A stretch of DNA of 63,608 bases from Candidatus Sulfotelmatobacter sp. (GTDB lineage Bacteria > Patescibacteriota > Microgenomatia > Levybacterales > UBA12049), in assembly GCA_035568375.1 (NCBI GenBank), contig DATMOG010000046.1:1-63608 (forward strand), given 5' to 3'. Positions within the stretch are counted from its first letter, which is position 1. Each line of letters starts with the position of its first letter. The notes under the pieces were generated by a model. The model saw only the letters and a program-made list of their open reading frames with translations. It was not told the origin of the DNA and made no database searches. Made by a program: the position numbers and the translations under genes. Shown in pieces: positions 24,730 to 39,071 of the stretch.

Positions 24730-25860
24730 ATGTTGCGTGCGTTATCTTACTATCTTCTTTTTTTTCTTTTCATTTGCAGTGTTTCTTTAGTGATAACACC
24801 TTCTAGTTTTGCGCAACAAGTATCCCCTACTCCTCCAAAATCTGAATTTATGAAAGCAACTGTTATAGGATCTGAAGGTGAGAAAAAGAATCCCTATTCT
24901 GATTATCAATCAACGATCCAGGTCTTAGATGTTGTAATTCTTGATGGATCTGATATCGGAAAGACAGTGCAGGTACAGTATGACGCACAACGCATTAATG
25001 ATCTTATTTTACATACCGGAGATACGGTAATACTTACAAAAACAAGTAGTGCTTCAGGGCCAGTAACCTATTCTATTGAGAGCAAGTATCGGTTAGCTCC
25101 CCTTTCTTTTATTGGAATAGCTTTTGTCTTGCTTGTTGTTTTTGTTGCTGGATGGAAAGGGATTGGTTCATTTATAGGATTAGGGATTAGTCTTGGGATT
25201 ATTTTTGTATATATCGTTCCGCAAATTCTTGCAGGGCAAGATCCATTACTTGTTTGTATGATCGGTGCAGTCGGTATCTTATTATTTACAACATATGCAG
25301 CACATGGCATCTCAAAACAAACAAGCATTGCACTTGTTTCTACCCTTTTGGCACTCTTTTTAACCTATGGGTTATCAGTTCTATTTGTGAAGCTCTCTTT
25401 ACTCACTGGATATATTGATGAAAATTCGATAGCTGTTCATTTTGGAACGGGACATTTGATTGATGTAAAAGGATTACTTCTTGGTGGTATTATTATCGGG
25501 ACGCTTGGTGCGTTAAATGATGTTACCACAACACAAGCTGCTACGATGTTTGAATTAGTAAGGACTGATAAGCAAGTTACTCGTAAACAACTTTTCAAAA
25601 AAGGCCTATTTGTTGGACGGGAACATGTTGTCTCATTGATAAACACCTTAGTGCTTGCTTATGCAGGATCATCTCTTACTGTTTTTCTTTTTCTTTTTTA
25701 TAATGCATCTTACTATCCTCTGTGGGTAATCCTCAATAGCGAAACGTTAAGTGAAGAAGTTGTACGAACAATTGCAGGAACAATGGGACTTGTTCTTGTA
25801 GTACCAATCGTTACTTTCATTGCAGCGTATTTTGCAACGAAAACACAAAAAAGCGTGTAA
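24730..25860 (+). CDS. YibE/F-family polytopic membrane protein
   Basis: Signal/anchor, soluble beta-rich N-domain, then about 7 TM helices with GALNDVTTTQAATMFEL. Confidence 0.65.
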   Translation: MLRALSYYLLFFLFICSVSLVITPSSFAQQVSPTPPKSEFMKATVIGSEGEKKNPYSDYQSTIQVLDVVILDGSDIGKTVQVQYDAQRINDLILHTGDTVILTKTSSASGPVTYSIESKYRLAPLSFIGIAFVLLVVFVAGWKGIGSFIGLGISLGIIFVYIVPQILAGQDPLLVCMIGAVGILLFTTYAAHGISKQTSIALVSTLLALFLTYGLSVLFVKLSLLTGYIDENSIAVHFGTGHLIDVKGLLLGGIIIGTLGALNDVTTTQAATMFELVRTDKQVTRKQLFKKGLFVGREHVVSLINTLVLAYAGSSLTVFLFLFYNASYYPLWVILNSETLSEEVVRTIAGTMGLVLVVPIVTFIAAYFATKTQKSV

Positions 25861-25916: not shown

Positions 25917-26777
25917 TTATCCTTCGATAGCAAACTTATTCTCTCTATCCGTATGGGAGAATGAACTATAAAAGTGAGGAGATATAATATGAGCGAGTGG
26001 AACGATCAATAAATAAGAAAGCGATGCTAATCCTGCGATAAAAAAACTCACCGGTCCGTGAAGCCATAATGCAAGGAATAATCCTCCCCAGGTAAAAAAT
26101 AATCCAAGCAGTATCGAGAAGAGAATAGTTATCAATGGACGTTTACTAATGTGTTGTGCGATTGCGGCAGGAGTAACCAAAAGAGCAAAAACTAACAAAA
26201 CGCCAACAATAAGAATTGCTTCAGTTACTGTTGCCGCAAGTAGTACCATGAACATATTTGAGAGAAATCGTACAGGTACTCCCCTTGCCTCTGCAACTTC
26301 TGGATCAACTGATGAGAAAAGAAGCGGTCGAAACATACAGATAACAAACAGAAGAGTTATCATTCCTGTCAGAACACTTAAGATCAGATCATACGAAGTA
26401 ACACTTAAAATTGATCCAAAGAGGATACCGACTGTCTCATTGGCATTGGTTGTGTAGAGTTTCAAAAATAACACACCAAGACCTAATGCAAAGGAGAGTA
26501 CCATACCAATTTCAACGTCTCTGCCTTGCAGGCGTTTTCCTAGTGTTCCCATACCAAGTGCAGCAATAATAGTGAAAAGAAAGGTCCCTGTTAGTGCGCT
26601 AACACCTAAAAGTGCAGCACCTGTTGCTCCGGCAAAACCGATATGGGAGAGTGCATGTCCTGCAAATGCTTGTGATCTCAAAACGACAAAATAGCCAACA
26701 ATAGCACAGACTATCGAAATAATTGTTCCGGCAAGAAAGGCATTTTGTACAAATTGATGCTGTAATAATTCAATCAT
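25917..26777 (-). CDS. Metal (Zn/Mn) ABC transporter permease, ABC-3 family
   Basis: 8-9 TM helices. FSSVDPEVAEARGVPV motif is shared with the adjacent paralog. Confidence 0.8.
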   Translation of the reverse strand: MIELLQHQFVQNAFLAGTIISIVCAIVGYFVVLRSQAFAGHALSHIGFAGATGAALLGVSALTGTFLFTIIAALGMGTLGKRLQGRDVEIGMVLSFALGLGVLFLKLYTTNANETVGILFGSILSVTSYDLILSVLTGMITLLFVICMFRPLLFSSVDPEVAEARGVPVRFLSNMFMVLLAATVTEAILIVGVLLVFALLVTPAAIAQHISKRPLITILFSILLGLFFTWGGLFLALWLHGPVSFFIAGLASLSYLLIVPLAHIISPHFYSSFSHTDRENKFAIEG

Positions 26778-27586
26778 AGTTTTTTACTCACTTTTGTTGT
26801 TACAAATAGTCGAATTGGTAAATAGACGCTAAAGGAAATGGTTGCAATAAAAAAGGAAACAGGTAAATTGGTAATTGCGGCTAAGTAAATACTTACCCAA
26901 CTGTAGAGTAACCCAAGTAGTATAGCAAGTCCAATTGCACTGTATGGGTTTTTCACAAGTCGCATTGCTGTTGCAGCAGGACCAATAAGAAGGGTGAAAA
27001 TAAGAAGGACGCCAACTACTTGTACCGAAATGGAAACAGTAATAGCAATAAGAACAAGAAAGAGTATTGAAAGAAACTGTACAGGCACTCCTCTTGCTTC
27101 TGCAACTTCTGGATCAAAAGAGCTAAAGAGTAAGGGTCGAAAAATGAGTGCAATTACCCCAATCGTTGCCATACTAAAAAATGCTGTGATGAAGACATTA
27201 TTTGAGCTAATGCCAAGGATTGTCCCAAAAAGAATACTGTATGCTTCTTCTGCGTACCCTGAATAAAGGAATAAAAAGAGCACACCAAAAGCAAGGGCTA
27301 AGGTAAAGATAATGCCGATGGGGACATCTCTTTCACGAAACTGTCTTCCTATCGATCCGATTGCAATTGCAGCAGCTATAGTAAAAGAAAGTAATCCCCA
27401 GAGAGGATTAATACCAAGCCATACAGCCCCTGCTGCTCCAGCAAAGCCTACGTGTGAAAATGCATGTCCAGCAAATGTTAACCCACGAGCAAGCATGAAG
27501 TATCCGACAATTGCAGCAACAATAGAAACAAAGAACGAGGCAATAAAGGCATTTTGGATAAATGAATATTGCAGAATATCAAACAT
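26774..27586 (-). CDS. Metal (Zn/Mn) ABC transporter permease, ABC-3 family (paralog)
   Basis: FSSFDPEVAEARGVPV. 4-nt overlap with the downstream permease. Confidence 0.8.
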   Translation of the reverse strand: MFDILQYSFIQNAFIASFFVSIVAAIVGYFMLARGLTFAGHAFSHVGFAGAAGAVWLGINPLWGLLSFTIAAAIAIGSIGRQFRERDVPIGIIFTLALAFGVLFLFLYSGYAEEAYSILFGTILGISSNNVFITAFFSMATIGVIALIFRPLLFSSFDPEVAEARGVPVQFLSILFLVLIAITVSISVQVVGVLLIFTLLIGPAATAMRLVKNPYSAIGLAILLGLLYSWVSIYLAAITNLPVSFFIATISFSVYLPIRLFVTTKVSKKL

Positions 27587-27591
27587 AGGTA

Positions 27592-28401
27592 TCAGTGTTC
27601 TTCTCCAATAACAAATAATCGTCCTTGTGCTTTTATGACCTCAACGGGTGACCCGTACAATTTTGTTAAGTTTTCATTTGTAATTACTTCATCAGGTTTT
27701 CCGATCGTACCATGGGTATTTGCGACATACAGTACCCTATCGATAACTGGTAACAAAAGATTAACATCATGGGTTACTAATAATACAGTCATTTTTCTAT
27801 TCCTGGCAATTTTGGTAATCAGCGAGACAATACCTTCCGAATGGATAATGTCTAAGCTTGCTAATGGTTCATCAAGAAGCAGAATTTCAGGATGTGTGAG
27901 CAGTGCTTGTGCAATGAGCAGTCGTTGCTGCTCTCCACCTGACAATTTGCCAACTGGCATACGAGCTAAATGCAACATATCAACTTCATCAAGTGCTTGT
28001 TCGATATGATGCTCACGTTTTGCGTTTGGTAGTGCAATCCCCCATTGATTACCGTCCAAGCCAAAACCAACGATATCTTTTGCCCGTAATGCAAGGTCAG
28101 CTTCAAGCGTTCTATGTTGAGGTGCATAACCGATTTTGTTATTACCTCTTTTTGGAGTTTTACCAAGGACCGTAATATTGCCGGAAGTAGGTTTATATAA
28201 CCCCAGAAGTAATTTAAGGAGTGTGCTTTTTCCTGCGCCGTTTGGGCCGAGAATTGCGATGAATTCACCTTCGTTGATGGTGAGTGAAATATTGTGGAGG
28301 ATTGTTCTTGCGCCTAATGTCAAATTTACATTTTCAAGCTCGATAGTTGTTGTTTGCATAAGTCTATTATAGCTAATGTTAGTGAGAGACGGTAGCTGCA
28401 A
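27592..28401 (-). CDS. Metal ABC transporter ATP-binding protein
   Basis: Walker A GPNGAGKST, signature LSGGEQQR, Walker B LLLDEP. The likely true start is the internal Met (MQTTTIELENV) at 28359, which removes the overlap with the SBP gene. Confidence 0.85.
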   Translation of the reverse strand: MQLPSLTNISYNRLMQTTTIELENVNLTLGARTILHNISLTINEGEFIAILGPNGAGKSTLLKLLLGLYKPTSGNITVLGKTPKRGNNKIGYAPQHRTLEADLALRAKDIVGFGLDGNQWGIALPNAKREHHIEQALDEVDMLHLARMPVGKLSGGEQQRLLIAQALLTHPEILLLDEPLASLDIIHSEGIVSLITKIARNRKMTVLLVTHDVNLLLPVIDRVLYVANTHGTIGKPDEVITNENLTKLYGSPVEVIKAQGRLFVIGEEH

Positions 28402-29308
28402 GAGCCTGTTGTAGCTTATTGAATTGATTCATCATCCACTCTTGATAATGGGTATTTTTTGGTAAGGTTTCGGTAACGGAAACGACTGGAATGTGTTGTT
28501 GTTTTGCTGCATTTTGTAAGTTTGTTGTAATTGGTGTTACCGTTTGTGCGTTATAGATAAGCACTTTTATTTGTTTTTTCGTTATTTGATCATTTGCTTT
28601 TGCCACATCATCTGCTGATGGATCATTTCCTTCTGCAATTGCTTTTTCAAAAGGAAAAGAAGTGAGGACGTTTAGATTCATAGGTTTTGTTTGATAGAGA
28701 TAAATTGTTTCAGTTAATCCAATAGGTGTTCCTTGATAGGTAGCCTTAATAACATTCATTTTTTTCGTCAAAGGTTGTAAAGAAGTAATAAATGTGTGGA
28801 GATTGTTAGCAAATGTTGCGCTGTCAGTAGGATCAGCTTTTTTCAATGCATCAGTTATTTTTGTTGCAATTGTTTGTACATTGTCAATGCCATACCATAC
28901 GTGAGGATTATCAGGTAATGTATGGTTTGCAATCATTGTCCCTGTTAAGACAACCCTGTTAGCATTAGGTGATGCAGAAAGAAGTTTATCCATCCAGGTA
29001 TCATATCCATCGCCATTTTTAATGACAATTTGTGCGGTTGAGACTGCTTTTGCATCTTTAACACTTGATTCATATTCATGTGGATCAGCATTAGGATCTG
29101 AAAGGATACTCATGATTTGTACTTTGTCCCCCCCCAGTTGCTTTGCGATATCTCCATAAAAGTTTTCTGCTGCGACTATTTGAATCGTTGTAGAGGAAGG
29201 AGTTGGTTGGTGTGTACGCTTTAAGAATAATCCTAATGCTCCTAAGAGTACGACTATTGTTATTGCGATGAGTGTTTTTTTCATAATTAATTTATTTGTT
29301 GTTGGCAA
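28379..29308 (-). CDS. Metal ABC transporter substrate-binding protein (ZnuA/TroA/MntC cluster A-I type)
   Basis: N-terminal anchor KKTLIAITIVVLLGALGL and the DPHEYE motif. The likely start is MKKTL at 29284. Confidence 0.8.
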   Translation of the reverse strand: MPTTNKLIMKKTLIAITIVVLLGALGLFLKRTHQPTPSSTTIQIVAAENFYGDIAKQLGGDKVQIMSILSDPNADPHEYESSVKDAKAVSTAQIVIKNGDGYDTWMDKLLSASPNANRVVLTGTMIANHTLPDNPHVWYGIDNVQTIATKITDALKKADPTDSATFANNLHTFITSLQPLTKKMNVIKATYQGTPIGLTETIYLYQTKPMNLNVLTSFPFEKAIAEGNDPSADDVAKANDQITKKQIKVLIYNAQTVTPITTNLQNAAKQQHIPVVSVTETLPKNTHYQEWMMNQFNKLQQALAATVSH

Positions 29309-29727
29309 GAACTACAAAGTCCGAAAAATTCAAGTGCGTGACTGGTAACTTTGAAATTTTTTTTCTTTTCAATATGCTTTTCAAGTACTTCAATATTGCA
29401 GTCGGAAATGTCCTGAATATCACCGCAATTGGTACAAACCAAATGGTGATGATCAGTTTTTGTTTGTAATTCGTATCGGGATTTTCCTTCATTGAGTTGC
29501 ACTGTTTTTAAAAGTCCTTTTTCGGTGAACATATTAACAATACGGAAAACAGTTGCCGGATCGGTTTTAATTTCTTTTTGATCGAGGTAGTCAATCATTG
29601 TTTGAACATCCAATGGTTTATCTGAAGACTCAAGTAATTTCATCAGAGCAATGCGTGCAGGAGTAGCTCGAAGATCTACTTCGTTTAATTCTGTTTTACA
29701 GTCATGTTGTATTTTTGCGTTTACCAT
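29287..29727 (-). CDS. Fur-family metalloregulator (Zur/Mur-like)
   Basis: Winged-helix N-terminus, HHHLVCTNCG...GLCSSC metal-site pattern. First gene of the metal ABC operon. Confidence 0.8.
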   Translation of the reverse strand: MVNAKIQHDCKTELNEVDLRATPARIALMKLLESSDKPLDVQTMIDYLDQKEIKTDPATVFRIVNMFTEKGLLKTVQLNEGKSRYELQTKTDHHHLVCTNCGDIQDISDCNIEVLEKHIEKKKNFKVTSHALEFFGLCSSCQQQIN

Positions 29728-29756
29728 AATGCGATCTTATCACAACTGCAAGGCAC

Positions 29757-29807
29757 TTGCAAGAGGATATTTTTTATATTATAATGCAAATAATTCGCAT
29801 TTGTCAA
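29757..29807. promoter_or_regulatory. Overlapping divergent promoters sharing a 19-bp Fur-type palindromic operator
   Basis: Plus strand: TTGCAA (29757-62) -N17- TATAAT (29780-85). Minus strand: TTGACA (29802-07) -N18- TATAAT (29778-83). Operator AATGCAAAT-A-ATTCGCATT at 29783-29801. Confidence 0.6.
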
Positions 29808-29839
29808 TTATGATAAATCCGGTTTTCTCTATCTAACCT

Positions 29840-32800
29840 ATGGCAGTACTAACAGAAATAAGACCAGAAACATATAAGGTATCTTCAAGCTCTTTTGCGC
29901 ATGAAAAAAAAACGAAACCTGTTATTTCTTTTCAACCAAGAAATTTTGAGGATATTCGAAGAGAAGAAGGGGTAGCCCTTGGATCTGTGAAGGTTGATTA
30001 TACGTATAAAAATGGTAAGAAAGAGACTGTTCAGTTGGCACCAGGAACATTTGTTCTACAAAGAGAGTACTTACCTGCTCTGCGAGCTCTTTGTGCTATT
30101 GTTGCTATTGACCCTCCTGGATATCTGGAAGCAGAAAGAACTTCAGCCGTTTTTAAAAATGAAATAAATCCACAGGTTGTGAATGAAGAAGCCTTAGTAC
30201 AAGACTTTGGAGATCGAGTAATCCCTGCACTTTTTTATATACAAAATAAGGCTGAACAATATCATTTTGACGATGAACTTGCACAATTTTTGCTTGATAG
30301 AACACCTGAAGGAACAAGAAGAGCTGAGGAATTTTTAGCAACTGCACGCGGTCCACAAAATGAATACGATGAGAAGGGTAACCTTATAAAGAGCATGTCT
30401 GATAGTTGCTCTAATGTGATTGGTACAGTTGCTGGTAAACCATATAGAATACACCCTCATGGAAAAATTAACGGCAATGATAAGATAGCTCTTGCGATAC
30501 TTGCTCTTGCCGGTGATGATCGAGCAGCGCGATTTGCAGGAATTTTAACTGAAAACAATCCTGACTTAGCTACAGTTCCTTTTGGGGAAAGAGCTGCAAG
30601 AATGGCTGAGATAACTCTTACAAGAGGCATGCATGAGAACGATCAGGTAGAGATAGAAACGATGACAGTTGCTGGTGAAGCCTATGCAACAGCGTCTGTT
30701 CTTGCTGCCTTTGTTCACAATCCACAAGAAGCAGTAACAGCCAAACAGTTTGAGATTCTTTCTCGAGAAAAAATTGTTGGGAAACGAGATATTTTTATTG
30801 AGCAGCCACCTGAATTGCAAAAAGCTGATGAAGCACTTGAAAATGCATTGGTCCAAGCATTAAAAAGCATTAGAGCAGAAACTGGCGGTAAGTCGGATAA
30901 CTGGAGAGGGGCTTTGGCTAAATTGTTTGATGATGCTATTGCACTTGAGACGATACAAAATGCACGGTTTAATCAACAGCCAGCCGATAAAAACGAAGCT
31001 AATATGCTAGCGACTATTGCTTTTGCTATTGAATTAGAATTACAGACTCGAGCTATCGAGGCAGAGAGAGTACCAACGACTGTGTTAGAAAAAGAAGCAA
31101 CACAGCATGCCACAGCGCTCCGAGAAGCGGGTTTTCGATATCCTCAGCATGGAATGGGTGAAGCAAGTAATACCATCAGGCATTTTGAATATGATAAACG
31201 TACAAAACAATGGATTCGTTGTGAGTCACATTCTCATGAAACAAAAGAATTATTGTTGCAAGCAAGTCAAAAAGTGGTTGCACCTCTTAAAGAAATAGCC
31301 GGAAGAACTGAGGTAAAAGCTTATCAACAAAAAATGCAACAAATCAAACCAGGAGGAAGTGCTCAACAAGAACCACGAAATCATGCCCATAAAGAGCACG
31401 ATCATGAAAAGCTTTCCGAACAGGAAGTCAGGATGCTTAAGGCAGTTAATAGCCTTCGTGTTCCTAAAGAGACGGAAGCGCTTGATAGTAAAGAAGCATG
31501 GAAGGATCGTATGCAGCAAGTTGCAGAAACAACTGTTCATATTGCTTCTCTTTCCGATACTCCAGAAGCAGAAGCTGTTCGTACGAAATTTAATGAACAA
31601 TTATTTTATGGTGTTATCGATGAGGCGAGTTTGAGAGAAAGACCTTCGGATGCTTTACGTGCAAGAAGAGAAGAGTTAACGAATATGGTTACCCAAAGTC
31701 TGAAAGAGGTAAGGGCAAAAAGTTCAGTAGCATCAGAGGTTATTGCGCTTACGATAGCAAAAGCGATGGAATCTTCGATTCAAGCGATTATTTTTGGAGA
31801 CAAATTGCCAACAATTAATCAAATTACACCAAAAGATACTAAATTTGTTATTTCCGTATTAGCATATGCTCTTGCATTAGAAACGCAACCTGAAGCCGTT
31901 GTTAAAACGGAAAAAGAGCAGAACATTATTAAACTGGCAAAAGAAATTAATGAGCAGTTTGGCGCCTATGCCATGAATCCGAGTAAACACGAGAAGGGTG
32001 CATTTCATTTTAATGAAAGAATCAAAGGTGGTCAGAATGAGGCTGATCCTTGTCCAGATCATACAGCACAAAGTACCCAAACAGTAAACCAAATAAATCA
32101 ACAATCAAAACAGCTTGCCAATAATTCCAGACAACCTCAACGCAGAGAACCGAGAGTTTCAGAAAAACCAGTAATGAAAGGCGGATCTGAAGAGTACGGT
32201 ACTACCAAGAAGTTTGGGTCTTCTTCACATGATGCAAGTAGCCAACACACAGAATCCGTAGAATCAGGAGCTGTAGGACGGGGGCGTTCACCTGAGAGAC
32301 AAACAAGAAGAGTTGAAAGCGCTAAGACGGGACCCTCAGATAGTAACAGACTTGCTTCTGTGAGAAAGGCTATTCAAGAAGCAATAGCCTCCACAGATAG
32401 TAATGCATCTGCGAGAAAGGCTAATCAAGAAGCAACAGTTCCTTCTGTTACGTATACCTCATTTGATAACGATGCTCCTCTACATCCCAAACCTGATAAA
32501 AGAAGCAGTGGGTTTATGCGTGGTAAACTGAAGGAATTAACTCGTAAACGACGGAAATTACTCCAGGGAGTAACGACTGTAGCTTCTGGGGGTACTCCAT
32601 CCTTAGTGATACCTGTATTAGCACATTCTGAATCAGGAGCTTCACAAAAAGTGACTGCAATAAAGCCTCTGCGTTTGATAGAGTCTACCAAAGGTCAAAT
32701 GCCTGATAACGTTCCTGCTGGTGCTAAAAAAGATGCTCCCCTTACAGCACCAAATTTTTATGTGCGTTCACAGTTAAGAGTAAGAGAAACAGTAAAAGGA

Positions 32801-33694
32801 GCGTCAAAAGAACGTGTGGCAGTAGTTGTATCTCATACAGCTAGTGGAGCAACGACATCAGGGCATTTATCGACTCCTTCAGGCGACCCTAATAATGCAG
32901 AAAGAGTGGTAACGGTATCAGGAAAGACAAAATCAAAATTAGGTAATGCTGTAACTGGTAAGAAATCTGCTGAAAAAGGTCCTTTTTCTCCAAAAGCGCC
33001 CAAAACACTTAATTCCACCAGACAAGAAGGAAAAAGTCGATCGTTACCGGAAGAATCGAAAGTAACCGGAGAAACATTGGCACAAGCAGTGACTGACGTA
33101 CAGGTTAGTGAGGCAATTGCGAAAATGAATGCTGAAGTTGCAGAGCAGGCAGAAGAAACAGGGCAAACAGCACAAGGAGGAATAGCAGAAACAGTTGCAA
33201 GAACGACTCATGCAGGTGATTCAAAGGAACAGACAACATCGCATTCTGCGTCTGTTGATGCTGGTGTTGCAACGGAGATAGAAACACGAAATCAAAAAGG
33301 AGAGGGTGTTAAAGTGCGCCTTAACACTGCAAGAGATAGAGTTACAGCTTCGCAGTCAAGAACAGAAAATCAGCCTGTTGCAGATGCAGCAACAGGAAAT
33401 GGGCAAATAGCCGTAGCAGCATCAGGCACGAGTATGGTAAAAACAGTTGCGATAGGAACGCAAGAACGGGAAGCACAACTTACCAGTACTCCACCGCAAC
33501 CCCCTACTCCACCAACGGATAGAGTGAAGCGGGTAAAGAATAGACAAGGGCAAGGACATCAAACTGCAACACTTGCTGCTGCAGTAGCAGACACTAATAA
33601 AGTAGGTCCTGACGTAATAAGTATTAAAGAATTATTTAGAGCAAGATTGGCTGCAGCGCAACAGGCTCTAGAGACCGATTCCATAGCTGCCTAA
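29840..33694 (+). CDS. Giant orphan protein (1284 aa): helical repeat-containing N-terminal part and low-complexity C-terminal half
   Basis: Long uninterrupted ORF. No TM or signal peptide and no assignable catalytic motif. Internal module duplication. S/T/A/K/Q/E-rich tail with PPQPPTPPT. Confidence 0.7.
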   Translation: MAVLTEIRPETYKVSSSSFAHEKKTKPVISFQPRNFEDIRREEGVALGSVKVDYTYKNGKKETVQLAPGTFVLQREYLPALRALCAIVAIDPPGYLEAERTSAVFKNEINPQVVNEEALVQDFGDRVIPALFYIQNKAEQYHFDDELAQFLLDRTPEGTRRAEEFLATARGPQNEYDEKGNLIKSMSDSCSNVIGTVAGKPYRIHPHGKINGNDKIALAILALAGDDRAARFAGILTENNPDLATVPFGERAARMAEITLTRGMHENDQVEIETMTVAGEAYATASVLAAFVHNPQEAVTAKQFEILSREKIVGKRDIFIEQPPELQKADEALENALVQALKSIRAETGGKSDNWRGALAKLFDDAIALETIQNARFNQQPADKNEANMLATIAFAIELELQTRAIEAERVPTTVLEKEATQHATALREAGFRYPQHGMGEASNTIRHFEYDKRTKQWIRCESHSHETKELLLQASQKVVAPLKEIAGRTEVKAYQQKMQQIKPGGSAQQEPRNHAHKEHDHEKLSEQEVRMLKAVNSLRVPKETEALDSKEAWKDRMQQVAETTVHIASLSDTPEAEAVRTKFNEQLFYGVIDEASLRERPSDALRARREELTNMVTQSLKEVRAKSSVASEVIALTIAKAMESSIQAIIFGDKLPTINQITPKDTKFVISVLAYALALETQPEAVVKTEKEQNIIKLAKEINEQFGAYAMNPSKHEKGAFHFNERIKGGQNEADPCPDHTAQSTQTVNQINQQSKQLANNSRQPQRREPRVSEKPVMKGGSEEYGTTKKFGSSSHDASSQHTESVESGAVGRGRSPERQTRRVESAKTGPSDSNRLASVRKAIQEAIASTDSNASARKANQEATVPSVTYTSFDNDAPLHPKPDKRSSGFMRGKLKELTRKRRKLLQGVTTVASGGTPSLVIPVLAHSESGASQKVTAIKPLRLIESTKGQMPDNVPAGAKKDAPLTAPNFYVRSQLRVRETVKGASKERVAVVVSHTASGATTSGHLSTPSGDPNNAERVVTVSGKTKSKLGNAVTGKKSAEKGPFSPKAPKTLNSTRQEGKSRSLPEESKVTGETLAQAVTDVQVSEAIAKMNAEVAEQAEETGQTAQGGIAETVARTTHAGDSKEQTTSHSASVDAGVATEIETRNQKGEGVKVRLNTARDRVTASQSRTENQPVADAATGNGQIAVAASGTSMVKTVAIGTQEREAQLTSTPPQPPTPPTDRVKRVKNRQGQGHQTATLAAAVADTNKVGPDVISIKELFRARLAAAQQALETDSIAA

Positions 33695-33697
33695 GAT

Positions 33698-33970
33698 ATG
33701 AGAGCAACGAAGAAAAAATTTCGAGTTATTGTAAGACCGTTTATTCCGAGAAAAGTTCCCTATCAGATTCCAACGGCATTGGTTGATACGGTAATACAAG
33801 AAGCGCTTTCAAAATTGAAAAAAGTAGTCTATGTGGGGTGGAATAAAAGGGTGAGAGAGGGAAAAAAACAGTATTTCTTTTTTGTTGCCACTGGCGATAC
33901 GGGACCTGAGGCACGAAAAATATTTAAGACAAGTGAAAATTTTGGTGAAGATATTTGGCTGATCGAATAA
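33698..33970 (+). CDS. Small basic hypothetical protein (90 aa), translationally coupled to the giant ORF
   Basis: ATG 4 nt after the stop of the 1284-aa ORF. Basic N-terminus MRATKKKFRVIVRPFIPRK. Confidence 0.5.
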   Translation: MRATKKKFRVIVRPFIPRKVPYQIPTALVDTVIQEALSKLKKVVYVGWNKRVREGKKQYFFFVATGDTGPEARKIFKTSENFGEDIWLIE

Positions 33971-35929
33971 TTAAAATTCTACTCGCTCACCTTCTTTGAT
34001 TTCTTCATTTATGATCATCTCGGCAAGCTTATTTTCTATTGTATCCTGAACTAACCGGATCATTCCTCGAGCACCATAACGTGGATCGTGTCCTTCTTTG
34101 GCAAGATACTTCATTGTTTGTGTAGAAACGGAAAAGCCGATATTTCTTTTGGCTAATTCTTGCTGCAATTTTGCAATTTGTAACTCCCCTATTTTTTCAA
34201 GTGCCTCAGGAGATAATGAATTGAAGACAATAATGTCATCAAACCGGTTGATAAATTCGATACGGAAATAATCCTGCAAGATTTCCTTAAGTTCCTTTTC
34301 AATCTCTGTTTGTGTTTTTCCTTCCTCGATCAAATCTAGAATATCTTCAATACCAGCGTTACTGGTTGCTATAATGACGGTATTTTTGAAATCAACTACT
34401 TTCCCCTGCCCATCGGTAAGTCTTCCATCATCAAGAACCTGGAGAAAGATATCAAATATTCTTGGGTGTGCTTTTTCGATTTCATCAAGCAAAATGAGGT
34501 TATATGGTTTTGCTTTTATTGGATTCGTTAACTGTCCTCCTTCTTCAAAACCAATATAGCCAGGAGGTGCACCAATCATTCGTTGCACCGTGTGAGCTTC
34601 GGCAAATTCTGACATATCAAGTCTCACCATTGCTTCTTCATCACCAAATATTTCTTTTGCCATTGCTTTTGCAAGTTCTGTTTTGCCAACACCTGATGGA
34701 CCGACGAAAAGGAATGAGCCAATTGGTCTATTCTTTTTGCCGAATCCAAGTTTGGAGCGTTGGATTACTTTTGCAACTCTGGCAATGGCATCATCTTGTC
34801 CTTTGACTTTTGTTGTTAATTTATCAGGTAGTGCTGATAAATCTTTTTTATCCAAATCAGTAAGACTCCCGATAGGGATTGAGGTTTTTTCTGAAATGAT
34901 TACCCTGAGCATTTCAAGAGTAACGCTATGACTTGATTGTGTTTGTGCTAAAAACGCTGCTTCTTCAAGGAGATACATTCCTTTTGCAGGAAATGCTTGG
35001 TCAGGGATATATTGTTTGGCAAGGGAGATTAATTCTTTAATGAACTCTTTTTCCCATGTGACATGCAGTCGTTCATCGATTCGCTTTTGATGACTTGTCA
35101 GGATTTCTTTAATTTCCTGTGTCGAGGGTTCTTCAATAGTGATTACTTCAAAACGGGAGATAATGCCGGGATTTTCTGTAGCAAATTTTTTGTATGAACT
35201 TTCATTTGCCGTTCCAATAATTTGACAATTTTCAACAGCATATTTAATCTGTCCTGCTTCAAAGGTAAATAATTCATCCATAAAAAGGAGTGATTTTCTT
35301 CCAGCGGTACTACTAAGAATATTTACTACTTGATCCAAAAAAGCGCTATTGCCGGAAAAAAGCTGAAATACTTTTGTGTCTATTAAACGTGAGCGCAATG
35401 CCTGTGCAAGTGTTGTTTTGCCTACTCCCGTTTCTCCAACGAGTAATACGCTATTACGAAAGGTACGTTGTAATATCCTTATTATCTCGGCTATTTCTTT
35501 TTCTCTACCGAGAAAAGAGAGCGGTTCGGCAACATTTTCAACTTTATGCAGATTATGTAAAAGGATTTCTTTTAAGACACTTCGGTAGTCATGGGATGCT
35601 CCAAGTTCTTCCAGTCCTTTCAATGCTGCTAATAATACCACGTGTTCATCGTTAGTTGGACAATCAAGCAGTTGCCGTTGCAAGGCACAGTGGCGTTCTA
35701 AATGTGTTTCAGCGGAGAGAGTAGCAGGTTGTTTTGCATGAAACAATCTCCCTTTGTCATGAGCTTCTTCAAGTAATTCTTTAAGATGTTGCTTGACCGT
35801 TTCTGCTGAATCAAGGAGAGAAAAACTTTCTGTTTGTTCAAGTATTACAAGGGCAACTGTTGCGAAAAAAGCTCGCTCGTTGTCCCCTTGTGTTGCAGAT
35901 GCGTCTTTAATTATTGTTTGTATTGTCAT
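33971..35929 (-). CDS. Clp/Hsp100-family AAA+ ATPase (two nucleotide-binding domains, short ClpB/ClpC-like)
   Basis: D1 Walker A GETGVGKTT and Walker B LLFMDE. D2 Walker A GPSGVGKTE, Walker B LILLDEIEKAH, sensor GARGMIRLV. No ClpP-docking IGF loop recognised. Confidence 0.8.
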   Translation of the reverse strand: MTIQTIIKDASATQGDNERAFFATVALVILEQTESFSLLDSAETVKQHLKELLEEAHDKGRLFHAKQPATLSAETHLERHCALQRQLLDCPTNDEHVVLLAALKGLEELGASHDYRSVLKEILLHNLHKVENVAEPLSFLGREKEIAEIIRILQRTFRNSVLLVGETGVGKTTLAQALRSRLIDTKVFQLFSGNSAFLDQVVNILSSTAGRKSLLFMDELFTFEAGQIKYAVENCQIIGTANESSYKKFATENPGIISRFEVITIEEPSTQEIKEILTSHQKRIDERLHVTWEKEFIKELISLAKQYIPDQAFPAKGMYLLEEAAFLAQTQSSHSVTLEMLRVIISEKTSIPIGSLTDLDKKDLSALPDKLTTKVKGQDDAIARVAKVIQRSKLGFGKKNRPIGSFLFVGPSGVGKTELAKAMAKEIFGDEEAMVRLDMSEFAEAHTVQRMIGAPPGYIGFEEGGQLTNPIKAKPYNLILLDEIEKAHPRIFDIFLQVLDDGRLTDGQGKVVDFKNTVIIATSNAGIEDILDLIEEGKTQTEIEKELKEILQDYFRIEFINRFDDIIVFNSLSPEALEKIGELQIAKLQQELAKRNIGFSVSTQTMKYLAKEGHDPRYGARGMIRLVQDTIENKLAEMIINEEIKEGERVEF

Positions 35930-36042
35930 AGTGTAAACGAGAGCGTTCCATGTAATAACTGTTACCTGACTATTGGAATTTCGACAAACTGGCGGGTTGT
36001 ATTTTTAAACCTCAGGGTCTATAAATGCTACTCAATTGCATT

Positions 36043-36071
36043 AGTATATGCAATATGATTGCATTTGTCAA
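36043..36071 (-). promoter_or_regulatory. Promoter TTGACA-N17-TATACT with a Fur-type palindrome in the spacer, aimed at the Clp-like ATPase gene
   Basis: TTGACA (36066-71), TATACT (36043-48). Palindrome TATGCAATA-T-GATTGCATT at 36047-36065. The flank GCATTTGTCAAT.ATGA is shared with the 29.8-kb site. Confidence 0.55.
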
Positions 36072-38411: not shown

Positions 38412-39071
38412 ATGAGTACTGAAAAAAACCAACCTGACTTAAGCTTCCTAGCACTCGATCATGCAAGACGTGTACAAGAAATGGAAACAGATTTTGCAAA
38501 ACGTGTAATAAATGGCACACCGGTGGAAGAGTATTATAATTACGGCGTAGCCTCTAGACTTGTGGAGGCAGAAGCAGATTTAGCTGGTATTACCCCAGGT
38601 GAGAACGTTTTATTTATCGGAAGTGGTCCATTTCCAAGTTCAGCCATATGTCTTGCTCGCCAACGTGACGTATCTGTTACTTGTTATGATCTCTCTTCTG
38701 ATGCTTACCAAATATCTACAGCAGTTATTGAGAAAATAGGATTGGCTGATAAAATTAAAGTAGCACAGGTATCAGGAGCAGATGGTAGTATGAGTGGCTA
38801 TGATGCTATCATTGTTGCGTTTGAATTGATGAATAAACCTGCTGTGTTAACAAATATTTTGGCTAATGTAGATCCCGACGCTAGGGTTATTATAAGATCA
38901 AGTGATGGGAATCGGAAGTCACTTTATCCTGCAGTTACTGATAAAGATCTTGCTGGTGGCATTACTAGGAAGGGATTAATACCTACCGGATCAAGGGTAA
39001 AACTGCCGGATTTTGATATTGCTTCTCGATGTTATATACGACCTTCTTCCTCCGGAAAAACTCAAACTTGA
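38412..39071 (+). CDS. Nicotianamine-synthase-like (NAS/CntL-like) SAM-dependent aminobutyryl-transferase family protein
   Basis: VLFIGSGPFPSSAICLA matches the NAS GSGPLP..S motif. YDAIIVAFELM and RSSDGNRKSLYPAVTDKDLAGG match the NAS C-terminal RSA.G.R.FLYP.V...DL.GF pattern. Recalled from memory, not searched. Confidence 0.55.
   Translation: MSTEKNQPDLSFLALDHARRVQEMETDFAKRVINGTPVEEYYNYGVASRLVEAEADLAGITPGENVLFIGSGPFPSSAICLARQRDVSVTCYDLSSDAYQISTAVIEKIGLADKIKVAQVSGADGSMSGYDAIIVAFELMNKPAVLTNILANVDPDARVIIRSSDGNRKSLYPAVTDKDLAGGITRKGLIPTGSRVKLPDFDIASRCYIRPSSSGKTQT

Follow-up and report, generated by a model that had tools for sequence, protein, structure and literature searches.

ZUR_D-type operators precede a metal importer operon, a giant-protein operon and a Clp-like ATPase gene in Patescibacteria-like genomes

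Introduction

The Zur regulon of Bacillus subtilis (box TCGTAATnATTACGA) contains zinc importers, zinc-free paralogs of ribosomal proteins, and the COG0523 chaperone ZagA. A different recognition sequence, the ZUR_D box ATGCAACnnnGTTGCAT, was predicted in 2004 to serve a divergent Zur in two Desulfovibrio species, where it lies ahead of znuABC-zur (Rodionov et al. 2004, Genome Biol 5:R90, PMC545781). Here we describe operators of this second kind in a metagenome contig of 63,608 bp and 36% G+C (ENA ERZ27253508; the same contig was recovered in a JGI sample), which we refer to in full as the window. Two palindromic sites in it, site 1 at 29783-29801 and site 2 at 36047-36065, lie within the promoters of three transcription units: a Fur-family gene with a metal ATP-binding cassette (ABC) importer operon, a divergent operon for a 1284-aa giant protein and a 90-aa protein, and a gene for a Clp-like AAA+ ATPase. 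We refer to the last three proteins as the cargo of the predicted regulon.

The Desulfovibrio system and the window share the same 17-bp palindrome and an autoregulated Fur-family gene, in the window a predicted one, linked to a znuA-type operon (PMC545781), and our scan pattern ATGCAACTNAGTTGCAT, which has exact matches in two related loci, L015 and L017, stands for four sequences that include the D. desulfuricans site ATGCAACtgaGTTGCAT. The window differs in that its sites are degenerate at inner positions, the host is Patescibacteria-like, each promoter has two boxes at fixed positions, and the regulon would add an AAA+ ATPase, a giant protein and a 90-aa protein unreported in Desulfovibrio. 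With B. subtilis Zur there is a common logic of a Fur-family repressor, a 7-1-7 palindrome overlapping promoters, and importers that are de-repressed together with zinc-sparing or zinc-mobilising proteins, a logic that would also fit a cysteine-free paralog of a small zinc-ribbon protein; the recognition sequence is another one, however, no ribosomal paralogs or COG0523 proteins were seen, and the cargo is an unfoldase with a giant Cys/His protein. In alpha-proteobacteria sitABCD is under Mur/Fur control (PMC1698941), which likewise involves a Fur-family gene beside a SitABCD-type importer and a 19-bp palindrome, but the signal there is Mn and no link to Clp-like genes is known. The ATPase itself has the two AAA+ modules and the D2-small domain of the class I Hsp100 proteins ClpB, ClpC and ClpA, although it lacks Clp_N, an M domain and an evident docking loop, and has an N-domain of its own with a CPxxDEH motif.

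Results

Paired boxes lie within three promoters of the window

A sequence-only reading of the window had described two palindromes embedded in three consensus promoters, and both the palindromes (AATGCAAATAATTCGCATT at site 1 and TATGCAATATGATTGCATT at site 2) and all three promoters were found where it had placed them. The promoter of zur (as we call the Fur-family gene) and the metal ABC operon is on the minus strand at 29778-29807 (TTGACA(29807-02)-N18-TATAAT(29783-78); 12/12 consensus positions), that of the giant/90-aa operon is on the plus strand at 29757-29785 (TTGCAA(29757-62)-N17-TATAAT(29780-85); 10/12), and the site 2 promoter, which is here joined directly to the Clp-like gene, is on the minus strand at 36043-36071 (TTGACA(36071-66)-N17-TATACT(36048-43); 11/12). 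A consensus scan ranks these as the three best matches within 29.6-36.4 kb; promoter-like sites in this interval are overall not above chance (12 found, 14.4 expected).

Allowing no more than one mismatch, ATGCAAWNNNWTTGCAT is matched twice in the 63,608 bp, at sites 1 and 2 only (site 1 has the one mismatch), against an expectation of 0.19, and two of 100 shuffled sequences reach two matches. A position weight matrix built from the relatives described below gives three window matches of at least 12 bits, all at sites 1 and 2, compared with about 0.85 in shuffles. The operator unit is a 17-bp palindrome with the consensus ATGCAAyTnArTTGCAT, which takes a perfect 8-1-8 form, ATGCAACTnAGTTGCAT, in relatives; site 2 is a perfect 7-3-7 inverted repeat.

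There is a companion box at each site, beyond the palindromes first described. At site 1, box A (ATGCAAATAATTCGCAT, 29784-29800; 18.5 bits) is placed inside the minus-strand promoter of zur, in its spacer, and also overlaps the -10/start region of the plus-strand giant-gene promoter, and the same position is occupied in relatives. A weak distal box (CTGCAAGGCACTTGCAA, 29746-29762; 7.2 bits) retains a perfect TGCAA-N5-TTGCA core; its right half, TTGCAA, is the -35 hexamer of the giant-gene promoter, and its center is 38 bp from that of box A, a spacing of 38-39 bp that is also seen in L013, L014, L016 and L140. What appears to be a relic box (29729-29745; 8.8 bits) adjoins the zur start codon, where relatives have a start-site-proximal box (as in the upstream regions of L005 and L003). 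At site 2, box A (ATGCAATATGATTGCAT, 36048-36064; 21.4 bits) lies in the promoter spacer and box B (ATGCTACTCAATTGCAT, 36025-36041; 17.7 bits) directly downstream of the -10 hexamer, with 23 bp between the two centers. The flank GCATTTGTCAAT that had been noted at both sites is real and is kept in all relatives, but it consists mostly of just the operator end and the -35 hexamer. No Rfam match was found in the window or in L012-L014.

The operator is conserved upstream of the regulator gene

Searching a genome collection with the Fur-family protein, we obtained seven loci whose regulators are 62-79% identical. Six of them share one arrangement, in which TTGACA, box A, TATACT, box B and a few bases lead to the start codon, and which is nearly the same as that at site 2 in the window; in the seventh, L007, the operator is degenerate. 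Together with loci found through other genes, the operator is present upstream of the Fur-family gene in 11 related loci (L003-L006, L008, L009, L013-L015, L139, and the degenerate L007), and it is kept position by position in 8-11 genomes whose proteins are just 50-89% identical. The placement of an operator inside the Fur-family gene promoter across these 11 loci supports the autoregulation that had been proposed for the window. We read the sites as operators of a known Zur-box class, for which autoregulation of zur and its importer would be ordinary.

The operator is conserved upstream of the cargo genes

We compared the genomic context of seven Clp-like homologs (54-89% identical). In all eight genomes, the window, L012-L017 and L140, an operator precedes the Clp-like gene or a 54-aa open reading frame (ORF) ahead of it, and the giant-protein gene is preceded by one in six of the six genomes in which this can be tested. 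Several of these cargo-gene sites lay outside the training set of the weight matrix.

L013 and L014 have the arrangement of the window, with the 54-aa ORF between the operator promoter and the Clp gene, and the truncated contig of L012 agrees with them on its Clp side, except that the ORF is a pseudogene. In L015 the small ORF, Clp, genes for 722-aa and 75-aa proteins, zur, znuA and the rest of the importer follow one another in the same direction, and operator promoters precede both the small ORF and zur. In L016, where Clp and a YibE/F gene diverge, a double box immediately precedes Clp and a box pair 38 bp apart precedes an operon for proteins of 1144 and 90 aa, with no Fur-family gene nearby. 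Separate operator promoters in L017 precede Clp, the small ORF (on the opposite strand, at a distance of 1.7 kb) and the gene for a 693-aa protein, and in L140 a box precedes Clp and a box pair precedes an operon for proteins of 78, 943 and 81 aa. In these last three genomes the box stands directly before Clp with no small ORF in between, and the giant-protein gene has its boxes although no Fur-family gene is adjacent. L139 has no Clp gene nearby; its small ORF is preceded by a double box, and its zur gene by a box. The plus-strand layout, in which the end of the distal box forms the -35 hexamer and is followed by N17 (N18 in L013) and a TATAAT that runs into the proximal box, is common to the window, L013, L014, L016 and L140.

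The gene linkage thus persists through rearrangement, as in the gene order of L015 and in a fusion of the giant and 90-aa proteins in L017. Comparative genomics (8/8 Clp units and 6/6 giant genes) supports the earlier suggestion that the giant, 90-aa and Clp-like genes are co-regulated, and conservation upstream of orthologs, which the sequence-only reading had put forward as a way to check itself, bears out both autoregulation and co-regulation of the block. At this level, the assignment of all three cargo proteins to one predicted regulon holds, and the content of that regulon is new.

The operator class is known and widespread

Site 2 agrees with the ZUR_D box ATGCAACnnnGTTGCAT at 12 of 14 consensus positions and site 1 at 11 of 14, and the homologous promoters of L015 and L017 have perfect matches. 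Since the motif in the window and in its relatives matches the published palindrome, the operator class is already known, as a prediction, and is tied to zinc uptake. The suggestion that the locus might be an undescribed metal-responsive module is upheld for its cargo, a combination that is new with respect to Pfam, NCBIfam, PHROGs, PADLOC, the PDB and the literature, and not for the motif itself.

Scanning a metagenome collection for the perfect palindrome ATGCAACTNAGTTGCAT gave at least 120 loci (L018-L137) on contigs with 20-73% G+C. Among the matches listed, the genes that start beside the palindrome include at least 22 for Fur-family proteins and at least 15 for homologs of zinc-type ZnuA, together with genes for a ZIP transporter, a YibE/F protein, an ABC ATPase, TonB, an outer-membrane alginate-export-type channel, and at least three TonB-dependent receptor clusters. 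From this spread of the perfect palindrome, the ZUR_D-type box appears to be used far beyond Desulfovibrio, in many phyla.

The regulator and two types of metal importer

The regulator gene (29287-29727, minus strand) encodes a 146-aa protein with a full-length Fur domain (PF01475, E = 7.4e-30; residues 17-134 against model positions 2-120 of 121). Its HHHLVCTNC and CSSC segments align with those of Fur, Zur and PerR proteins in the PDB, and provide the HHH motif (HHH/HxH) and the two CxxC pairs of the structural zinc site.

Downstream on the same strand are genes for a cluster A-I metal-binding protein (28379-29308; Pfam ZnuA), an ABC transporter ATPase (27592-28401), and two ABC-3 permeases (25917-27586; individually 26774-27586 and 25917-26777), the components of a cluster A-I importer of the ZnuABC/SitABCD kind. 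The C-lobe of the binding protein has no sequence match in the PDB, so its predicted ligands, His, His, Glu and Glu, were taken from the family alignment. The same type of importer, with a His/His/Glu/Glu binding protein that has no His-rich loop, two permeases and a YibE/F gene, is present in L003, L009 and L013. A second type, in L004, L006 and L014, has one permease and a His/His/His/Asp binding protein, which is typical of zinc, and in L005 a ZIP-family transporter takes the place of the importer. The regulators of L004, L005 and L006 are 78-79% identical to that of the window and apparently drive a zinc-type ZnuA (L004 and L006) or the ZIP transporter (L005); a zinc-type ZnuA is also present in L014, which lay outside this regulator comparison. 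Two different importer cassettes are therefore found under the same regulator and operator in close relatives. A gene for a protein resembling Cu/Zn superoxide dismutase (SodC) lies downstream in L006.

A gene for a YibE/F membrane protein (24730-25860, plus strand) is convergent with the importer operon of the window. In the window, L003, L009, L013, L015, L016 (7752-8864) and L102, YibE/F genes are found repeatedly next to Zur boxes or as the last genes of importer operons under predicted Zur control, and this recurrence suggests a role for the uncharacterised family in metal transport. A search of the literature on YibE gave nothing useful.

A Clp-like ATPase with its own N-domain

The Clp/Hsp100-type ATPase (652 aa; 33971-35929, minus strand) belongs to a well-populated family of about 650 aa, most members of which are labelled by source as Patescibacteria, Levybacteria or Dojkabacteria. 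It has two AAA+ modules and a D2-small domain, as expected of a class I Clp/Hsp100 protein; D1-D2 aligns contiguously with ClpA residues 175-729, and D2 with D2-small matches ClpB and ClpC structures at 364-366 bits. None of the NCBIfam scores comes near its equivalog cut-off (457 bits for ClpB, against a cut-off of 1232). Clp_N (PF02861) is absent from its Pfam matches, and more distant homologs of 724-747 aa do carry it. There is no M domain in the 652 aa, compared with about 857 aa for ClpB; ClpA, with which it aligns, itself lacks one. Reading the sequence by eye, we saw no IGF, IGL or VGF ClpP-docking tripeptide between TSNAG and YFRIEF, and the spacing in this region appears ClpB-like.

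The family-specific N-domain of about 125 aa has a conserved motif, (S/D/G)CPxxDEH, at residues ~75-100, which is preceded by HC in close relatives, and the family averages about two cysteines per protein. This CPxxDEH motif might coordinate a metal.

The Clp-like gene converges on the 90-aa gene, and the two meet at 33970/33971 with neither a spacer nor a terminator between them. The abutment is the same in L012 and L013, and the L014 genes overlap by 4 bp. Transcription from the two convergent promoters, if they are co-regulated, would collide or give antisense overlap.

The giant protein and its 90-aa partner

The giant-protein gene (29840-33694, plus strand) had been called an orphan. A word-indexed homology search did find only the protein itself, but an exhaustive search found six relatives among 1.84 billion representative proteins, and there are syntenic homologs; it is a very fast-evolving protein rather than a true orphan, with about 26% identity between genomes whose Clp proteins are 84-89% identical. 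Its conserved motifs are C-x15-HxHG (residue 190) and H...C-x-x-H (residues 448 and 717). The homologs, which include P0243, P0244 and L015 10965-13133, share C-x13-17-HxH(G/A) and H...CPxH motifs that hold nearly all their cysteines, and several have poly-His tracts such as HHTHEAKHHHAHPHTHEAKHHHAHPH. The long C-terminal half is disordered, with an abundance of Ser, Thr, Ala and Lys.

Sequence searches of Pfam, NCBIfam, PHROGs, PADLOC and the PDB with the giant protein were empty. AlphaFold modelling of residues 520-790 from a five-sequence alignment (predicted local distance difference test, pLDDT, 81; predicted template-modelling score, pTM, 0.76) predicts a helical bundle with a beta-hairpin at the Cys/His motif, for which Foldseek gave no PDB fold match (best E = 0.6).

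The 90-aa basic protein encoded immediately downstream (33698-33970, plus strand) is a conserved partner of the giant protein, 44-67% identical to the window copy among relatives. In L017 its homolog forms the last 90 residues of the 693-aa giant-like protein, and is 48% identical to the window copy. It has no match in Pfam, NCBIfam, PHROGs or PADLOC, and a single-sequence AlphaFold model is poor (pLDDT 52). We considered whether it might be a ClpS adaptor and rejected this, on an hhalign probability of 0.6% (against a provisional E. coli ClpS sequence) and the absence of a Pfam hit.

A small ORF has decayed between site 2 and the Clp-like gene

In an alignment of the regions upstream of Clp in the window, L012, L013 and L014, the window retains the promoter and both boxes of site 2, but has lost the Shine-Dalgarno sequence of the 54-aa ORF. 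A remnant of about 20 degenerate codons from the first part of the ORF, which is intact in relatives, remains at 35974-36015 (minus strand), and ~215 bp are deleted that in relatives hold the rest of the ORF and two very stable hairpins (-60 kcal/mol, z = -8.3 at L013 1436-1572; also in L012 and L014). The alignment indicates that the site 2 promoter ancestrally served the 54-aa gene, and that the deletion joined it to the Clp gene in the window. The hairpins lie between the 54-aa ORF and Clp, with the second abutting the Clp start codon; possible roles are in termination, attenuation or translation.

For the 54-aa family (MKFYNVKTRQ...MKNGKKAA...KLFKILSKEDAARL) there are over 200 homologs at 70-98% identity, and nothing in Pfam matches it. 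The ORF is intact in L006 (8632-8796), L013 (1274-1438), L014 (9708-9872), L015 (8690-8866), L017 (7100-7258, minus strand) and L139 (5001-5162). It is under a Zur-box promoter in five genomes, in addition to the pseudogene in L012 and the remnant in the window; in a Dehalococcoidia metagenome-assembled genome (L138) it adjoins a CDF cation-efflux gene and has no box.

DUF5679 (PF18930), a four-cysteine zinc ribbon, has the same length and spacing as the 54-aa ORF, but the natural 54-aa sequences have no cysteine and do not match the DUF5679 model. With four cysteines re-inserted in silico, they match the full model at 39-48 bits. The 54-aa protein may be a cysteine-free derivative of DUF5679, which we offer as a lead and not as a finding; no cysteine-containing DUF5679 paralog was found in the window or in L003-L017, and the literature on DUF5679 yielded nothing useful.

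Neighboring genes and taxonomic labels

A nicotianamine-synthase/CntL-like gene (219 aa; 38412-39071, plus strand; PF03059) lies 2.3 kb from site 2, and scores 35 bits against the NCBIfam CntL model, far below its cut-off. Opine-type metallophore genes are Zur-regulated in other bacteria. No operator box of 8 bits or more was found upstream of this gene.

The taxonomic labels conflict. The giant protein of the window is filed at NCBI under Candidatus Sulfotelmatobacter, and L003 and L006 are labelled Gammaproteobacteria, whereas most Clp and small-ORF homologs are labelled Patescibacteria, Levybacteria, Daviesbacteria or Dojkabacteria. Patescibacteria is the label that best suits the 36% G+C and the genes present, and some bins probably carry a wrong label.

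Discussion

A zinc-sensing Zur is the likely regulator

On our reading of these data, metal-loaded Zur would bind the 17-bp palindromes as a dimer, inside or against the promoter hexamers, and so block RNA polymerase. The units under the boxes would be the zur and metal ABC importer operon, by autorepression; the divergent giant/90-aa operon, with its -35 hexamer and its -10/start site each covered by a box; and the Clp-like ATPase gene, with one box in the promoter spacer and one at the start site. Metal starvation would release the repressor and induce all three units together. We infer repression from the position of the operators, and binding by the 146-aa protein, the zinc signal and the function of the cargo likewise from sequence and context.

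A zinc-responsive Zur is the most likely regulator because the motif matches the predicted ZUR_D box and because the palindrome adjoins genes for Fur-family proteins, zinc-type ZnuA, a ZIP transporter and TonB receptors. The zinc-type ZnuA and ZIP cassettes of relatives with similar regulators also speak for zinc, as would the likeness of the 54-aa protein to a cysteine-free DUF5679 zinc ribbon, if that lead is right. The best explanation, which we consider likely, is that the 146-aa protein is a zinc-sensing ZUR_D-type Zur controlling all three units, and zinc is quite probably the metal that it senses.

Several observations weigh against this. By sequence the regulator is equally distant from Fur, Zur and PerR, with family scores that do not discriminate, and its best NCBIfam models are Fur and then PerR (85 bits), not Zur. 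Aligned with 2o03, it has no Cys before HHH, unlike the sensing site of Mycobacterium tuberculosis Zur, and a Lys at the equivalent of Asp62, so that an Asp/Cys/His/His sensing site is not seen; ZUR_D-type proteins may use a different one. The Zur of Streptomyces (S. coelicolor) presumably has the cysteine before HHH as well. Judged by the PsaA and ZnuA motifs, the His/His/Glu/Glu binding protein and two permeases of the window resemble the Mn/Fe importers SitABCD and YfeABCD. Neither C-minus ribosomal proteins nor COG0523 GTPases were seen, in genome pieces that are only of contig size, and the connection of the 54-aa protein to DUF5679 depends on the artificial re-insertion of four cysteines. 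The Desulfovibrio ZUR_D box is itself solely a computational prediction (PMC545781), and we found nothing useful in the literature on Zur in Patescibacteria.

Alternative explanations

The same operator and regulator could instead answer to Mn(II) or Fe(II), as in Mur- or Fur-like proteins, and the module would then serve the manganese or iron economy. The ligands, the permease pair and the lack of a His-rich loop in the importers of the window, L003, L009 and L013 favor this, as does the ranking of the NCBIfam models, and a by-eye reading of the alignment shows that the regulator retains the Glu, His-x-His and Asp positions of the Fur/PerR regulatory site. The N-terminal His of that site (the His37 equivalent) is an isoleucine, however, the motif class and related regulators are linked on many contigs to zinc-type ZnuA, ZIP, CDF and TonB-dependent receptor genes, and L014 has the same block (small ORF, Clp, giant and Fur-family gene) with a zinc-type binding protein; we therefore think a Mn or Fe signal unlikely. 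The same isoleucine bears on a PerR-like peroxide sensor, in which unfoldase, metal import and SodC (L006) would form an oxidative-stress regulon. The second rank of the PerR model would agree with this, and a ClpB-like ATPase and the superoxide dismutase-like gene in L006 fit a stress response. But PerR needs His37 for its metal-catalysed oxidation, the operator is unlike the PerR box TTATAATnATTATAA (quoted in PMC545781), and no catalase, AhpC or Dps genes are beside any site examined, which leaves a peroxide sensor scarcely credible.

Another possibility is that the ATPase, giant and 90-aa genes constitute a conflict or anti-phage system beside the zur operon, with boxes that are incidental or only tune expression. 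The extreme divergence of the giant protein next to a well-conserved Clp would be in keeping with this, and the Clp D2 domain matches the PADLOC models DolB and PDC-M37B. These matches span only the generic ClpB-type AAA module, however, while the giant and 90-aa proteins are unmatched in PADLOC and PHROGs; the ATPase is highly conserved and widespread in Patescibacteria; and the boxes are at fixed promoter positions before these genes even where zur is elsewhere (L016, L017 and L140). We consider a defense system very improbable. That the palindromes arose by chance in AT-rich intergenic DNA might be argued from the low G+C of the window and the unremarkable overall number of promoter-like hexamers, but two motif matches stand against 0.19 expected, and position-by-position conservation over 8-11 genomes has already refuted this explanation, to which we attach practically no weight.

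A regulon of unusual content

Under a zinc-sensing Zur, our guess is that the cargo, an unfoldase with a Cys/His giant protein and a 90-aa protein, would be a zinc-mobilising, zinc-chaperoning or zinc-sparing proteostasis machine. The hints of metal binding are the His tracts and Cys/His motifs of the giant homologs and the CPxxDEH motif of the Clp N-domain; the libraries and literature searched gave no zinc connection for the ATPase, giant or 90-aa proteins. A specific version, which we put forward as doubtful, is a Zur-controlled zinc-starvation machine in which a ClpP-independent Hsp100, the giant protein and the 90-aa protein strip, buffer or re-allocate the zinc of existing zinc proteins, or sustain proteostasis when zinc-finger chaperones fail. 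If true, this would be an ATP-driven counterpart of the COG0523 metallochaperones that other phyla have, built on a domain without a match among solved PDB structures.

The pair of regulator and operator is ordinary, and what is new is the cargo that is wired to a metal sensor in genome-reduced, uncultured Patescibacteria. The operator class now has a defined promoter architecture and an apparent reach from Desulfovibrio to many phyla, and the wiring survives gene-order rearrangement, gene fusion and exchange of the transporter. These observations raise the question of whether unfoldases have a part in bacterial zinc economy, and predicted induction by metal starvation would provide a first functional handle on three uncharacterised protein families.

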